Positions 28,596 to 51,678 of a stretch of 64,000 nt of DNA are shown here, piece by piece (positions within the stretch are counted from its first letter, which is position 1; every line of letters begins with the position of its first letter). The notes beneath the pieces are model-generated. The model did not search any database, had not been told where the DNA came from, and was given only the letters and a program-made list of their open reading frames with translations. Source of the DNA: Eledone cirrhosa (taxonomy: Eukaryota); contig OZ024743.1 in assembly GCA_964016885.1 (NCBI GenBank), positions 329,406,001 through 329,470,000 on the forward strand, read 5' to 3'. The translations under genes were made by a program, and so were the position numbers.

Positions 28596-29667
<1,072 letters not shown>

Positions 29668-32600
29668 AATTAAGTTAAAAATGTACATCCACATATGTAT
29701 ACTGAAATACTAGTATGCATATGAATACACACACGTGTACATATGTAGATGTACCGAGTTTTCACTGGTCACTTTACTGTGAGTGTCCAGCTATTCTGTA
29801 TGTAGACACACAGACAAACCGGTTCTTAGAGTCATACTGGTTTTTGAGGAAACACCTTTCCTCTATTCTCCAGAAAGCCAGACAAGGAATATTGGACTAG
29901 TTTCGATGTTGTTACATCTCATCAGCAATATTTACCTATCTTCCGGCTTCTCTAGAGAATCGTGAAAGCACATATCGTTATATGCTTTTTCTATGAAAAT
30001 TAGTAGTGGGCAGACCAATTTGCATAGAGCGTGAGTACGTACCGGTTCAACGGAGACGATAAAAACAAATAACGAAACGAAATTAAATTTCGTTTCGTTT
30101 GTAACTCACTTTTGTATGACTGACGCTTAAACAATTAAGTTAAAAATGTACATCCACATATGTATACTGAAATACTAGTATGCATATGAATACACACACG
30201 TGTACATATGTAGATGTACCGAGTTTTCACTGGTCACTTTACTGTGAGTGTCCAGCTATTCTGTATGTAGACACACAGACAAACCGGTTCTTAGAGTCAT
30301 ACTGGTTTTTGAGGAAACACCTTTCCTCTATTCTCCAGAAAGCCAGACAAGGAATATTGGACTAGTTTCGATGTTGTTACATCTCATCAGCAATATTTAC
30401 CTATCTTCCGGCTTCTCTAGAGAATCGTGAAAGCACATATCGTTATATGCTTTTTCTATGAAAATTAGTAGTGGGCAGACCAATTTGCATAGAGCGTGAG
30501 TACGTACCGGTTCAACGGAGACGATAAAAACAAATAACGAAACGAAATTAAATTTCGTTTCGTTTGTAACTCACTTTTGTATGACTGACGCTTAAACAAT
30601 TAAGTTAAAAATGTACATCCACATATGTATACTGAAATACTAGTATGCATATGAATACACACACGTGTACATATGTAGATGTACCGAGTTTTCACTGGTC
30701 ACTTTACTGTGAGTGTCCAGCTATTCTGTATGTAGACACACAGACAAACCGGTTCTTAGAGTCATACTGGTTTTTGAGGAAACACCTTTCCTCTATTCTC
30801 CAGAAAGCCAGACAAGGAATATTGGACTAGTTTCGATGTTGTTACATCTCATCAGCAATATTTACCTATCTTCCGGCTTCTCTAGAGAATCGTGAAAGCA
30901 CATATCGTTATATGCTTTTTCTATGAAAATTAGTAGTGGGCAGACCAATTTGCATAGAGCGTGAGTACGTACCGGTTCAACGGAGACGATAAAAACAAAT
31001 AACGAAACGAAATTAAATTTCGTTTCGTTTGTAACTCACTTTTGTATGACTGACGCTTAAACAATTAAGTTAAAAATGTACATCCACATATGTATACTGA
31101 AATACTAGTATGCATATGAATACACACACGTGTACATATGTAGATGTACCGAGTTTTCACTGGTCACTTTACTGTGAGTGTCCAGCTATTCTGTATGTAG
31201 ACACACAGACAAACCGGTTCTTAGAGTCATACTGGTTTTTGAGGAAACACCTTTCCTCTATTCTCCAGAAAGCCAGACAAGGAATATTGGACTAGTTTCG
31301 ATGTTGTTACATCTCATCAGCAATATTTACCTATCTTCCGGCTTCTCTAGAGAATCGTGAAAGCACATATCGTTATATGCTTTTTCTATGAAAATTAGTA
31401 GTGGGCAGACCAATTTGCATAGAGCGTGAGTACGTACCGGTTCAACGGAGACGATAAAAACAAATAACGAAACGAAATTAAATTTCGTTTCGTTTGTAAC
31501 TCACTTTTGTATGACTGACGCTTAAACAATTAAGTTAAAAATGTACATCCACATATGTATACTGAAATACTAGTATGCATATGAATACACACACGTGTAC
31601 ATATGTAGATGTACCGAGTTTTCACTGGTCACTTTACTGTGAGTGTCCAGCTATTCTGTATGTAGACACACAGACAAACCGGTTCTTAGAGTCATACTGG
31701 TTTTTGAGGAAACACCTTTCCTCTATTCTCCAGAAAGCCAGACAAGGAATATTGGACTAGTTTCGATGTTGTTACATCTCATCAGCAATATTTACCTATC
31801 TTCCGGCTTCTCTAGAGAATCGTGAAAGCACATATCGTTATATGCTTTTTCTATGAAAATTAGTAGTGGGCAGACCAATTTGCATAGAGCGTGAGTACGT
31901 ACCGGTTCAACGGAGACGATAAAAACAAATAACGAAACGAAATTAAATTTCGTTTCGTTTGTAACTCACTTTTGTATGACTGACGCTTAAACAATTAAGT
32001 TAAAAATGTACATCCACATATGTATACTGAAATACTAGTATGCATATGAATACACACACGTGTACATATGTAGATGTACCGAGTTTTCACTGGTCACTTT
32101 ACTGTGAGTGTCCAGCTATTCTGTATGTAGACACACAGACAAACCGGTTCTTAGAGTCATACTGGTTTTTGAGGAAACACCTTTCCTCTATTCTCCAGAA
32201 AGCCAGACAAGGAATATTGGACTAGTTTCGATGTTGTTACATCTCATCAGCAATATTTACCTATCTTCCGGCTTCTCTAGAGAATCGTGAAAGCACATAT
32301 CGTTATATGCTTTTTCTATGAAAATTAGTAGTGGGCAGACCAATTTGCATAGAGCGTGAGTACGTACCGGTTCAACGGAGACGATAAAAACAAATAACGA
32401 AACGAAATTAAATTTCGTTTCGTTTGTAACTCACTTTTGTATGACTGACGCTTAAACAATTAAGTTAAAAATGTACATCCACATATGTATACTGAAATAC
32501 TAGTATGCATATGAATACACACACGTGTACATATGTAGATGTACCGAGTTTTCACTGGTCACTTTACTGTGAGTGTCCAGCTATTCTGTATGTAGACACA

Positions 32601-33090
32601 CAGACAAACCGGTTCTTAGAGTCATACTGGTTTTTGAGGAAACACCTTTCCTCTATTCTCCAGAAAGCCAGACAAGGAATATTGGACTAGTTTCGATGTT
32701 GTTACATCTCATCAGCAATATTTACCTATCTTCCGGCTTCTCTAGAGAATCGTGAAAGCACATATCGTTATATGCTTTTTCTATGAAAATTAGTAGTGGG
32801 CAGACCAATTTGCATAGAGCGTGAGTACGTACCGGTTCAACGGAGACGATAAAAACAAATAACGAAACGAAATTAAATTTCGTTTCGTTTGTAACTCACT
32901 TTTGTATGACTGACGCTTAAACAATTAAGTTAAAAATGTACATCCACATATGTATACTGAAATACTAGTATGCATATGAATACACACACGTGTACATATG
33001 TAGATGTACCGAGTTTTCACTGGTCACTTTACTGTGAGTGTCCAGCTATTCTGTATGTAGACACACAGACAAACCGGTTCTTAGAGTCAT
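29668..33090 (-). repeat. 465-bp hammerhead-containing tandem array, left arm (~7.4 units, 7 HHRs on the minus strand); retrozyme/Penelope pLTR-like
   Basis: Exact 465-bp period (ORF track repeats at 29715, 30180, 30645 ...). Starts directly after a ~1 kb (TA)n tract. Reverse-complement HHR at 29888-29932 +465n. Confidence 0.92.
29888..29932 (-). ncRNA. Minimal type I hammerhead ribozyme (representative of 7 minus-strand copies at 29888+465n)
   Basis: Exact reverse complement of the 33295-33339 motif. Confidence 0.9.
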
Positions 33091-38176
<5,086 letters not shown>

Positions 38177-38648: not shown

Positions 38649-39445
38649 AAACGGAAAAAATGAAACGAAATTTCATTTCCCACTCTTAGTACGGCTGTTA
38701 CTGAAATATAAGTATGTACACGTACATACATATATGTATACAGACGTACAGTAGTATGTATATATATATACATACATGCACACATATATATATATATGTA
38801 CGTATGGATTCACCGAACATTTATTATAATGCTCGGTGTGTTTGTAAACAAACATCCCGTATTAAGCCATAGTGTCTAGCAACCATCGTTGCTCGTTTGT
38901 TCAACACTGACAAAGGAACGCTGTACTAGTTTCAAGCTTATTAGCTATCGTCAGCAACGTATACCTTCCTGCCAGATGGTTGAACGTCTGAAAGTATTTA
39001 CTTTCCTTATGCATATTAACGACTGAGCAGCCTAATTTGCATATCGAGTGGGTTAATCGGCCGGGTGCACAGAAAACGATAAACGGAAAAAATGAAACGA
39101 AATGAAACGAATGCAAATTAGGCTGCTCAGCCGTTAATATGCATAAGGAAAGTATATACTTTCAGACGTTCAATCAACTGCCAGGAAGGTATACGTTGCT
39201 GACGATAGCTAATAAGCTTGAAACTAGTACAGCGTTCCTTTGTCAGTGTTGAACAAACGAGCAACGATTGTTACTAGACACTACGGCTTAATACGGGATG
39301 TTTGTTTACAAACACACCGAGCATTATAATAAATGTTCGGTGAATCCATACGTACATATATATATGTGTGCATGTATGTATGTATATATGCATACTACTG
39401 TACGTCTGTATACATATATGTATGTACGTATACATACTTATATAT
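38649..39445. mobile_element. Diverged sibling of the 465-bp unit: ~432-bp unit with terminal redundancy plus an inverted second piece
   Basis: AAACGGAAAAAATGAAACGAAAT at 38649 and ~39081. The piece ~39110-39445 is inverted. HHRs at 38919-38959 (-) and 39194-39234 (+). Shares AATTTGCATA, GATAAA and TACTGAAATA blocks with the 465-bp unit. Confidence 0.8.
39194..39234 (+). ncRNA. Type I hammerhead ribozyme
   Basis: CGTTG-CTGACGA-TAGCT(AATA)AGCTT-GAAA-CTAG-TA^-CAGCG. Confidence 0.8.
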
Positions 39446-39671: not shown

Positions 39672-39937
39672 TATATGTATATATATATACGCATATATAT
39701 GTATATATATATACACATATATATGTATATTGCTGTGGAAAAATGTGTGGAGATGATCAGTGAGAGTGGGGTGGAGTTCTGCGACGTCGACACAGATGAA
39801 TTGGGCCTCCTACTTAGACTTACCTATGACACCAAGTACCTAGATAACCATAACCTTAGCCGTTTCTGCCCCAGTAGACCCACAAGAAGTAGACACCCCG
39901 CCATAACCTCAATGGCAAAAAAGACTCCCATGGGAAG

Positions 39938-40255
39938 GTGGTTTGGGTGGACCAAAGCCATACGGACCCCCAAAACAATGATCAGGTAAGAAAAATGGTC
40001 GCGCATGCAATAGGGGCTAGTATCAAAACTACCCTGAAGGGCCATATATTCAAATTCAACGAAAAGATCTACACCCAAAATGAGGGGGCAGCCATTGGCG
40101 TCAGCATAGCTGGTGACGTTACCAACCTTTTTATGGTGTGGTGGGAAAGGAGACTCAAAGATCTCCTTGGTGAGAGCTCCATAGACCTCTTCATGTACTC
40201 TCGTTACGTAGACGATATTAATATAGTAATAACACTTCTAAGTTTAATATTCTGA
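39938..40255 (+). pseudogene. Penelope-type reverse transcriptase fragment
   Basis: Q..G.AIG and RYVDD motifs; truncated soon after the catalytic motif. Confidence 0.85.
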
Positions 40256-40545
40256 TCGCAGACTTGGTACGAGTGATGAAGAACGTGTCCCGCATGGGCG
40301 ACCCAACAGAAATGGAAAGACACATCCAACACTTCATCAACCGCATGCAGTTCTCTGGCTACAACCAAAGAGACAGAATCAGAGTATACAAAGGAGCCAC
40401 GAAGAAGTATAAGGGCCTCATAGAACTGGACATGAAAGGAATTTGCCCATTATACAGGAGAAAATCATGGAATAGCTTAGATAGAACTAAACATAAGATA
40501 GGGAAAGCCACCTCATGGTATGACAACTAAAGATACCAGAGTGTC

Positions 40546-41040
40546 ATGTTCGTAGACGCTACCCCTGGAGGTAAATTAGCTAACCAGTGTAGAAAGGCCC
40601 TGAGAAAGACCCACTTAAATATTAAAGTGGTAGAAAAGCCAGGAACTACCATAAAATCCCTGATCAGCAAAATATACCCTTTTATGAAAACCCACTGTAC
40701 TAATAGGAAATGTGTTATATGTAAAGTAAACCCCCAGATAAGCTGTAAAACTAGAAACGTAGTCTATGGCATAAGATGTACAGAGGGTACTTGCAGAAAC
40801 ATGACAACAACATACATAGGCGAAACAGCTCGAAGCATAGGTGAAAGGATAGACCAACACTGGGGGAAACTAAAAGGATGAAAAAACAGTTCAGTACTAT
40901 ACGAACATGCCAGACAACAACATGACGGTAACATAGACAACATAGAAATTAAAATAATATCTAAACATAGAAATGACCCAGCAGATAGGCAAGTGAAATA
41001 GAACTTAGAAGGCCAAAGCTAAACAGAAAAAAATGAATGG
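40546..41040 (+). pseudogene. GIY-YIG endonuclease fragment of a Penelope-like element
   Basis: VVY..C..C...YIGET.R...R...H, with in-frame stop at 40879-40881. Confidence 0.85.
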
Positions 41041-48169: not shown

Positions 48170-51165
48170 ACTAGTTGAGTTCTTTCTGTTACTAGCTTCT
48201 CAAGATTTGTATTGAGACAGTTACTAACATACCCCAGTGCCCCAATAATCACAGGCATAAATCTGAAGGTCTAATCTGAGTGGAGTATCTGCAGATTTCT
48301 CATCAGTTCTGCATAAATATTCTCCTTTTCGCTAATTTTTTATATTATATTGGCATCTGCTGGGCAGCTAATTTCCACTACTGTGCATGCTTTCTTCTCC
48401 CTGCCTCATATCGTAATATCTGGTCTGTTATGCCTGCATTTTATTGAGGTTTTTAATGGAACATTCCACCAGTACTCTTTCATATTATGTACGTGGATGT
48501 CTTCCACATTGCTGTAGCTTTTAATGTGTTTATTATCGGGGCTATCTTTTTTACGAACTGCATTGTACACTGTTTTGGCCACTACATCATCCCTCATAGG
48601 TAGATAGTACCGCGATGACATCTTTGGACAGCTGCTGATGACATGGGTGATATCCTCGATATTAGTTCTGTAGAGTCTGCACTTGTTATCACATCTAGGT
48701 GTTTTGCCTGCATCCCTATTTCTTTTGTGAATCAGGTATTTCGTGTTGATTTCCTGTTCTTGGATTGCAAAAGCGTATCCTTCAAAGTGGGAGCCAATAT
48801 AGCGGTTGTTGGTCCAAGGTAGACTACTTTCCTTATCTATATTACTCTCACTCTGGAGCTTCCTGGCAACATATCCATGCATGATTTTTTGCTGATAAGC
48901 ATGCAGTTTTTGATTCATGGATTCACTGCGATTCTGCTGAGCGACTTCCCTGAGTGTGAGTTTTTGATTGTCACAGGGAATATGTCTCGAAAAGTTCCTT
49001 CCCAACTCTCATGATCTTATCTGTTTCATGCAGATAGACTTGCTCGAGAGACGGGCTCCTTCACTTCAAGGTTCGTAGATGTTGTCGGAGGGATATGATG
49101 CGACATTCAAATGCTATCTGGACTGATGTTAGGCCTCTGCCTCCCTGCTTACGTTTCAAGTAATGGCGGTCTATGTCACTGTTGATGTGGAAGTTTCCGG
49201 TGTTGTTTAGTATTTTTCGAGTTCAAACCTCAACTGCTCGGATTTCGTCTATCGTCCATTTGAGTATTCCAAACGTTGGTGTTAGGACAGGCACAGCAAA
49301 CACATTGTGTGCCACTGTTTTGCGCAGAGAGTTCCGATGACCAAATCTTTCTTAATCGGGTGTATTATTCCCTGGTTACGCGTTCCTTATTACAGATGCC
49401 ATTATAGGATATGTTCTCATCTATCCCCAGGTATCTGTAGCAGTCCTCATCAGATATCGGTGAAACAGTTAGGCCATTGATGACAATGTTGCTAGATTGG
49501 GTTGTTGTATTTTCCCCGCTTTACAATCATGTATGAGCATTTATCTTGGCCAAACTCCATTCCTATATCCTTTGAGAACGTTGTAACCAGGTCAAGATTT
49601 TTCTTCATCCCATCCATGTTCTTGGCATAGAGTTTCAGATCATACACAAAGAAATTATGGGTTAGGTTCGTATTTTTGTCCTCCTGTGAGCCAATGATGT
49701 ATCACTCACATTTCTTGAGCAGAAAGGACAAGGGGTTTAATGACAAGATGAATAATATCACAGAGAGACTGTCTCCCTGAAATATACCCCTGCGATATTA
49801 TATTTTATTAGTGAAAATAGAGTCCACCCTCTCTGTCTTAACCTTAGGATAGTAGCCCAAGAAGAAGACAGCTTCTCTATGGCTCTGACAATAATGTCTG
49901 GGACTTTAGCAAGTTAGAGGGCCTCTATCATCCAAGATTGGGGAACAGAATCGAAAGCTTTCCTGTAGTCCAGCCAGACTGTAGCCATATTCCTCCTAAG
50001 TTGTTGCACCTCCGACATCGCAGTTTTGTTGATTAGGAGTTGTTCAGCACATCCCCAAATCCCTTTCTTTCCAGCTGTTTGTTCATCCGTGATGATGTTA
50101 TTATTTTCACAGTGATCTTGGAGGAATAGGTTCAGGCAGGCTGTATACATCTTATACATCAGGTTCTGCCATGCATTGGGTCGGTAGTTTTTTGCCAAGT
50201 GGGTGTCTTTGTTCTTGGGGACCAGTAATGTTTGTGTTAATGTCAACCATTTTAAGAACTTGTTGGTAGAGGTCAGTAAGATACCTCCGATAGAATATCA
50301 GTTTTTTGTACCAGTAGCCGACAATCATGTCTCTTCCTGGTATTTTCTTATCTTGGAGTTTTCCTATCACAGTCTCAAGAGTACCCTCACTTATTTCGTA
50401 TGTTTTTGTTGTAGTGTAGGAGCAATAGTTCTTTGAGATTTCTCTTAGCCACACTGCATCTTGGTTGAAATTCTTCTTTTTACCCCATATTTTGCTCCAA
50501 AAGGAATCTATGTCTTTCAGTGACACTTATTATTTTGTTCTTCATATCTCTATAGACTGATGTTTGGTTTCGTCTGAATCTTTTATTAAGCACTTTTCTC
50601 TCATCTAGCTTCTTCAGGGTCCGGTGTTTTTCGCTAACAGCTCTCAATTCTTGTTTGAGGGTGATCAGCTTATATTGAAGAGTTCTGGTTCTACTGTTAC
50701 CAAACATCGTCTCTATTTTATTTTTCACTCTTTGTTGAGGAGTGAGGTTTTTTGTGTTTGTTTGCATGTAAGGAACATTGTCACAAATCCTATGGTTTTT
50801 TGTAGGTCAGCAATCTTTTTTTCTATTTTAGTTATATATGATGGTATTTTTGGTGTCGTTTTGTTCTTGTTAATATCTCTGGTATCACCAAGATAATGCT
50901 TCACTGTCGTTGCTAAGGCATATAAACAGCCGTTGATTTGCCAAAATGTTTGGGTTTTTCTCCGTAGTAAATATTCATCCCCTATTTCGTCAATAACACG
51001 TAATATTTCATTATTTGGTTTTTCATTAAAAATTGTCGTTTTAATACGTTCAGCAAGAGAGATATTTATACATGAATTAATTTCTCTCAGGAAGATTTCG
51101 TTGAGGGAAATTTTCAATTGTTTATACTTTTGATTTTTATCATTATCGATAGAAATTTCCACAAC
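48170..51165 (-). mobile_element. Degraded non-LTR retrotransposon with restriction-like endonuclease (R4/Dong-like)
   Basis: RT motifs PGRDMIVGYWYK, NYRP, WLDYRKAFDSVP, GIFQGDSLS; zinc knuckle CRL...EDITHVISSC; RLE motifs HNRPDI, VEISCP, PVIIGALG. Many frameshifts. Confidence 0.85.
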
Positions 51166-51678
51166 AGTCGAAGTAGACTCGGATTTGCAATCGATTCCCG
51201 GACAGGGCGATGCGTTATCTCCTTGAACAAGACACTTTATTTCACGTTGCTCCTTTTACCTGGAGTTGCGACCGATAGATAGTATTAGCAATTGAAAAGA
51301 CAAATGGAAACATTGTTTCCTCGGTCCGATTTGACGAAAGTCGATCGTTCAAAAAAATAAATATATATATATATATATATAAAATTATAAGTTTGAAGAA
51401 CACTCAGACAAAATATATCCAATTCTTTTCCTCCTTAGTCCGTAAAAATCAACTAGATAAATAATCATTTAAACGGATCTATGTTTAAAATGTAACTTTG
51501 AAGAAATAAATGTCACTTATATGAAATAACAGATAAATGTGACTTTCCTCTGTGAGGAACAGTCAGATAAAATTTACCTAGTCTTTCCTCCTAGTCTGTA
51601 GAAATTAACTAGACAAATAATCAATTAAACGGAGCTAAGTCTAAAATGCAAGTTTGAAAAAAAAAAAATATATATATA

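Follow-up and report, generated by a model that had tools for sequence, protein, structure and literature searches.

A hammerhead-bearing retrozyme family of Eledone cirrhosa whose inverted arrays point to a probable Penelope-like, two-site insertion mechanism

Retrozymes of the non-LTR type are already known from metazoans, and their units are given as about 150-450 bp long with a GC content below 50%, or as 51-972 bp long in the available parts of a recent preprint (bioRxiv 10.64898/2026.07.22.740005). According to the accessible text of PMC7229834, metazoan retrozymes produce circular RNAs, multimeric retrozyme RNAs exist, and Penelope-like elements (PLEs) are the suggested driver. Mobilization of retrozymes by PLEs has been put forward in PMC7229834, PMC7761336 and the preprint, and has the status of a proposal. 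On how retrozymes move and how their tandem arrays originate, PMC7229834 proposes circular templates and PLEs, and the preprint discusses an amplification on the spot after insertion. Also known, from the parts of PMC8557442 and PMC3846280 that could be consulted, are inverted PLE insertions in (TA)n targets, in which the tail is often found at one end only; how PLEs make such inverted arms is called undefined in PMC8557442. The PLE protein of PMC11167929, for which a dimer is predicted, nicks and extends both strands of AT-rich DNA in vitro, and unprocessed RNA is its main substrate in that system. Two adjacent internal RNA start sites bound the PLE 'tail' in the same work, as far as its available text goes.

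We analysed a window of 64,000 nucleotides, meaning the whole stretch of E. cirrhosa DNA to which all window positions below refer, in which a 465-bp unit forms a tandem array of 17.53 units overall within (TA)n at positions 29668-37811. The array consists of two arms of opposite orientation (Table 1). The unit has a GC content of about 0.37, and no ORF of at least 150 aa was found within the array. The hammerhead has a full core with helices I-III, helix III being a short CTAG, its fold has a z-score of -4.0, and its cut is predicted after position 33332. It matched Rfam family RF02275 (HH9) with an E-value of 5.8e-08 and 38.9 bits, under the gathering score of 52; further Rfam matches (sraA, miRNAs) were likewise under the gathering score and were taken as chance. 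A unit with a type I hammerhead fits a non-LTR retrozyme, and we found tandem non-coding units in the size and GC range of this class, one type I hammerhead per unit, dispersed copies and, in the same genome, GIY-YIG matches and a young intact PLE. The array therefore fits a hammerhead-bearing non-LTR retrozyme by its sequence, for which self-cleavage and a circular RNA are predicted, and the orientation of the hammerhead makes the right arm the likely RNA sense strand. In the genome we counted 1934 occurrences of the exact A-type right-end motif with TA directly after it.

Table 1. Features of the retrozyme array and its flanks in the window (u, position in the reference unit)
Feature	Positions	Strand	Description
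Left target microsatellite	28646..29667	.	about 1 kb of (TA)n with G interruptions, adjoins the B end
B arm	29668..33091	-	antisense, 3424 bp, 7.36 units, outer end u4 (site B), inner end u301
Inner junction	33090..33091	.	2-nt TA microhomology, TA fits both arms
A arm	33090..37811	+	sense, 10.17 units, inner start u465, outer end u78 (site A)
Reference unit U (u1-u465)	33091..33555	+	465-bp retrozyme unit, coordinate frame for all u positions
13-bp hairpin (u38-66)	33128..33156	+	separates start site B from start site A, present in every unit
Type I hammerhead ribozyme	33284..33355	+	core CTGATGA..GAAA at 33302, recurs in each unit
Substitution G95C	34580..34580	+	one unit only, absent from all others
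Net 7-nt deletion near 37597	37590..37605	+	one unit only
Right target microsatellite	37812..37979	.	(TA)n
Inverted flank repeat	37980..38173	.	40-nt flank sequence twice, inverted, around a (TA)n run

Words of the unit were also present in runs X4-X20 from many other organisms, and a 495-base contig in X4 spans the unit, from which it differs at few positions. Another tandem family, which has a period of about 480-490 bp and resembles parts of the unit at 68-70%, has an inverted arm as well; it was seen at L141 (4345-5931), L137 (5032-5637) and in the inner flank of L245, which may be a chimera with this family. In the window itself, positions 39352-39427 match u383-454 weakly (76%), perhaps as an old copy or a TA-rich chance match, and broken ORFs of 176-200 aa at 48406-51255 resemble another non-LTR retroelement.

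The left arm is an exact reverse complement of the unit, with no mismatch and no variant along its whole length, and the units of the window are otherwise identical except for the one substitution and the one net deletion, both in the right arm. The left outer end (u4) and the right inner start (465/1) have TAATT in common, and the AATT/TAATT overlap with the TA microhomology at the junction is as an earlier, sequence-only reading of this DNA had described it. The outer end of the right arm reads ...TTTGTTTTTAT|ATATA and runs into (TA)n without poly(A). Both outer ends are RNA-sense 3' ends adjoining (TA)n, which upholds the part of that reading that placed two primers on opposite target strands, and because both flanks are (TA)n, a target-site duplication is not definable at this locus. 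The inverted 40-nt copies in the right flank may be a fold-back of target DNA that is possibly tied to the insertion. Inverted duplications of unique flank around (TA)n beside insertions were seen also at L105 (660-760), L114 and L120.

Further loci were drawn in three samples: 26 chosen by unit identity with no selection on their ends, 99 of the first 100 A-type ends listed on C1 (C1:25894947 was left out), and 30 B-type ends without an exact A nearby, the last set being enriched for exceptions. L104 was removed as a duplicate of L103. The A-anchored set is able to test A/A pairs only, not B/B pairs. A (TA)n target was partly built into the end-anchored search patterns and also holds in the identity-picked set. 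Arm boundaries were read by hand from BLAST output, with some bases of error possible at hairpin or microhomology junctions. The register table leaves out 28 of 119 A-anchored rows (4 cut by an edge, 5 with an outer end that is neither A nor B, 1 PLE chimera, and 18 one-armed or unclear) and 8 of 30 B-anchored rows (1 B/B, and 7 one-armed or unresolved).

Comparison of these loci showed that the outer ends are fixed at one of two places that flank the 13-bp hairpin and lie about 70 bases apart, namely site A at u78 (a few variants have it within u72-79) and site B at u1-10. One end of each kind was found at 116 loci, comprising 92 loci, 22 from the B-anchored set, L040 and L096, compared with a single B/B locus (L237) and no A/A locus. 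The probability of this pairing is about 1e-33 if ends are independent at 50:50, and all 17 of the 17 loci in the identity-picked set pair A with B. The apparent A/A pair at L058 proved to be two separate insertions, and the inverted arm had an outer end at neither site at five loci (L053, L073, L111, L114 and L137). The internal priming position, which the sequence-only reading had expected to vary, is thus fixed at site B (u1-10). The actual regularity of the family is the pairing of A with B, not register. This one-A-one-B rule is near-strict, and bulk in vitro data are unable to show such pairing; in the available text of PMC11167929, start sites are given without a difference between strands. 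An inverted 5'-truncated copy with a tail at one end only and an AT-rich or (TA)n target, both marks of PLE-type insertions, were found. The earlier attribution to L1 machinery does not agree with the type I hammerhead, the lack of poly(A), the (TA)n target and the contrast of tail and no-tail ends, all of which are PLE-like.

The rule also bears on whether the inversion is an artefact of assembly or of a fold-back read, which we regard as very improbable. The four public runs compared are contigs with another majority haplotype, none of which crosses the window junction as an independent read, and the inverted duplication in the nearby flank would suit such an artefact. The junction 30-mer has a single occurrence in the assembly. 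Against an artefact, the junction is not a mirror, having u301 on one side and u465 on the other, the flanks of the array are two different sequences, and the 116 loci obey the same A+B rule with different junctions.

The inner junctions, in contrast to the outer ends, occur at scattered unit positions, and many of them show microhomology or short templated inserts. Exact register, with the 5' end of the A arm within -5 to +1 of the B end, was observed at 5 of 114 two-armed loci (the window, L060, L095, L122 and L242), where 1.7 were expected; with the window excluded, the same 7-nt interval held 4 of 113 (1.7 expected, P 0.09). Register within 20 nt was found at 19 of the 114 loci (17%), and the other 95 were out by more than 20 nt, whereas 46% of 287 L1 inversions lay within 20 bp in the available parts of PMC12016303. 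The sequence-only reading had seen the array as one concatemer split by twin priming of the L1 type, and had stated that inversion points unrelated to the outer breakpoint at other loci would refute it. When other loci were checked, the inner junctions were indeed mostly unrelated to the outer breakpoint, so that the L1 twin-priming reading fails its own test and the register had been over-read: exact register is uncommon in the family and is not its general rule. The register of the array in the window is less surprising than first assumed, since a fixed start site, one of the two, accounts for its left outer end; the array is in register because the left end lies at B by rule and the A arm came to a stop at B as well, possibly by chance and possibly through slight stalling close to B.

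We also compared the positions of the 5' ends with the two sites. The 5' ends of A arms fell at -30 to +10 of site B in 20 of 113 loci, about twofold over the 10.0 expected (P 0.002), for an interval that was picked post hoc and has a scan-corrected P of 0.12. No replication was seen among the B-anchored loci (2 of 22), nor is the excess clearly specific to A arms (15/56 versus 8/52, Fisher P 0.17), but it favours collision-type twin priming for some loci. The ends of B arms near site A showed no excess (8 of 76), and an apparent excess of 5' ends just downstream of the ribozyme cut at u243-263 (12 of 159, 7.2 expected, P 0.06) was not accepted. The lengths of A and B arms were uncorrelated (Spearman 0.16, P 0.12). 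A arms commonly ran beyond B, 101 of 114 exceeding 110 nt, and both arms were longer than one unit in 35 of 92 loci. As separate observations, L090 has a 65-nt GC-rich insert between both arms (870-934), and L038, L050, L083 and L118 have several same-strand jumps inside one arm, like template jumps of a reverse transcriptase (RT) between unit positions.

These measurements bear most directly on twin priming by a PLE enzyme on one long linear multimeric transcript, with primer 1 at A, primer 2 at B some n units upstream, and an A arm that ends on meeting primer 2 or is truncated earlier. The five loci in exact register, the mild excess of A-arm ends near B and the common haplotypes of the arms would agree with it, as would the use of unprocessed RNA by the PLE protein in vitro (PMC11167929) and the multimeric retrozyme RNAs reported in the accessible text of PMC7229834. 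We consider it unlikely as an account of the family, however, given the 95 loci out of register by more than 20 nt when set against L1. It also needs RNAs as long as 14 kb (L078) to stay uncleaved although every unit contains a ribozyme, it predicts that variants of a source array reappear in its daughters, while among 55 loci only 3 locus pairs were seen to have two minority variants in common, and it alone leaves the absence of the second primer from A unexplained; the arms of the autonomous PLE described below, moreover, re-copy the same 3' end. It possibly applies chiefly to the in-register minority.

To examine the templates, we compared the haplotypes of the two arms. Among 62 loci, the arms differ from each other by 0.6% on average, compared with medians of 2-12% to other loci; they are mutually closest in 34 loci and tied in 16, and in 12 the difference between them exceeds that to the nearest other locus. 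Private variants were fixed in both arms at L044 (T165G) and L042 (A112G). Many fixed variants together with no internal variation were found, for example, at L089, L102 and L071, the last with 19 fixed variants and 0 singletons over 14 chunks, as expected if such uniform arrays come from repeated laps of one monomer. These comparisons bear out that the array of the window came from one template haplotype and very likely from one integration event, as the sequence-only reading had it, but not that its 17.5 units arrived at once: register modulo 465 is unaffected by gain or loss of whole units and cannot show the unit count at insertion.

For the same reason, the case that had been made from register against unequal crossing-over does not hold, and L078, L083 and L133 do show periodic variants. 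Periodic variants were found in a few long older arrays (L078, L083, L133, L091 and L087), with periods of 4 in L133, 6 in L083, and 7 and 10 by eye in L078, and they need multimeric templates or later duplication. Growth of a short two-armed insertion in place by unequal crossing-over or slippage, in line with the local amplification of retrozymes discussed in the available text of the preprint, would fit these periodic variants and is compatible with the blindness of register. We nonetheless think it improbable as the general origin of the arrays, since both arms exceed one unit at more than a third of the loci compared, and the youngest loci, which are identical across chromosomes, already have up to about 19 units with variants that are nearly all singletons. 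Young arrays held 25 minority bases in 72,166, and the two variants of the window occur once each. Minority variants concentrate at u266-269, with 20 of 323 events and mixed changes; this is the 3' base of the ribozyme-bearing stem, at which an RT would enter the stem, a coincidence that is no more than suggestive. A second hot spot of single-unit substitutions, also with mixed base changes, was seen at u121.

A possible driver is present in the same genome. We found a very young PLE family (1836 candidates, of which the 40 matches that were scored have close to 100% identity), in which the copy at L193 has a 1291-aa ORF, a hammerhead-like motif downstream and (TA)n targets. Pfam RT and GIY-YIG domains were found on a 96.6%-identical fragment in L054, and a Pfam search with the whole L193 ORF gave no match. 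The protein of this family has a CxxC motif upstream of its C-terminal GIY-YIG, and these motifs, judged by the criteria in the available parts of PMC8557442 rather than by a tree, suggest a Neptune- or Nematis-type element. Two-ended insertions were found at 14 of 19 PLE loci, and all 14 pair an end carrying a 60-nt tail with a no-tail end in (TA)n; in these loci, both arms re-copy the same 3' end. The pairing rule is therefore a PLE property. In addition, at L031 a retrozyme arm is fused directly to a sense piece of the PLE ORF (99.5%). The 3' region of the PLE showed no significant similarity to the unit (local score 43; shuffles 37 +/- 6, maximum 60), and derivation of the unit from the pLTR of the L193 PLE was rejected. 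Since the terminal region of the PLE has no detectable relation to the unit, the L193 PLE is at most a candidate driver of the unit rather than its parent, and what speaks for that role is the one chimera and the common pairing rule.

Other PLE-related sequences were seen beside these. The intact young PLE at L193 (76-3981) and at L188-L207 has an Asn-rich insert in its ORF, and the window holds old fragments related to the L193 PLE at 39724-40980 and 1475-1726 (71% and 86% identity, respectively). Several loci (L127, L143, L190 and L235) stack retrozyme and PLE ends within one TA run, and at L045 (5243-5372) a retrozyme B arm is fused to the terminus of a different abundant repeat family (2415 candidates).

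In the retrozyme we observed outer ends that are fixed, the pairing of A with B, inner junctions that vary and haplotypes common to both arms, and the autonomous PLE follows the same rule. We consider it probable that a PLE-type enzyme inserted the array by priming both target strands at two fixed RNA sites, likely while lapping a circular monomer. A PLE-like enzyme would nick both DNA strands in a (TA)n run and, with RNA of a single haplotype as template, would use A to prime one cDNA and B to prime its partner, presumably with one enzyme subunit starting at each site. Each RT would then run a variable number of laps, most simply round a circular monomer with strand displacement, and the two 5'-truncated cDNAs would be joined by microhomology end-joining into a head-to-head inverted array. 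Arms that start at two fixed sites and are PLE-like were likely written from both DNA strands in one event, and strand displacement on a circular monomer best explains the A arms that run beyond B, the arms of up to 14 kb and the uniform haplotypes. What we infer is which kind of enzyme acted, that its template was circular and that the full unit count dates from insertion.

A bolder form of this mechanism, offered tentatively and somewhat less likely than not, is that a PLE-type RT dimer binds a single circular retrozyme RNA at the hairpin that separates B from A. One subunit would always prime at A and its partner at B, from opposite target strands, and the two would chase each other round the circle, displacing each other's cDNA, and an inverted array of up to about 30 units could form in one event. 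If true, the array would be a genomic footprint of double rolling-circle reverse transcription, which would explain both the PLE tail and the retrozyme arrays.

All these results point to a new retrozyme family that records a two-site, both-strand insertion mechanism of PLEs. The family gives direct genomic evidence on the origin of retrozyme arrays in the form of PLE-type ends on both sides of multi-unit arrays. The L193-family PLE, being young and intact, lends itself well to in vitro work, and together with a defined 465-nt RNA it makes the mechanism testable. Two-armed PLE-type ends on retrozyme arrays and a counted A+B rule were not found described in the literature searched, which included few subscription papers; Figure S9 of PMC7229834 and the supplements of the preprint may bear on this.

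The comparisons with known systems that follow refer to the available parts of the papers cited. The family shares with L1 twin priming (PMC12016303) two cDNAs from opposite target strands, a microhomology join and, at the window, a small overlap; unlike L1 twin priming, it has no poly(A) priming, its second site is fixed, and its arms usually do not partition the template. It is like the metazoan non-LTR retrozymes (PMC7229834; bioRxiv 10.64898/2026.07.22.740005) in its non-coding units of a few hundred bp, its GC content of about 37%, its thousands of copies and the weak helix III of the type I hammerhead that each unit contains; its pair of inverted arms, each of several units and ending at a fixed A or B site in (TA)n, had no counterpart described in the retrozyme papers searched. 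With EN+ PLEs (PMC3846280, PMC8557442, PMC11167929) it shares head-to-head inverted arms, a tail at one end only, two adjacent start sites, targets that are AT-rich or consist of (TA)n, the lack of poly(A) and, at some junctions, palindromes, but the retrozyme is non-autonomous and its arms are many laps long. The tail of the retrozyme is 70-77 nt long and non-coding, compared with 30-40 nt for the PLE tails in those papers and 60 nt in the PLE of this genome. Finally, the EN+ PLE papers describe a tail at one end as occurring 'often', whereas the one-A-one-B rule was counted here.
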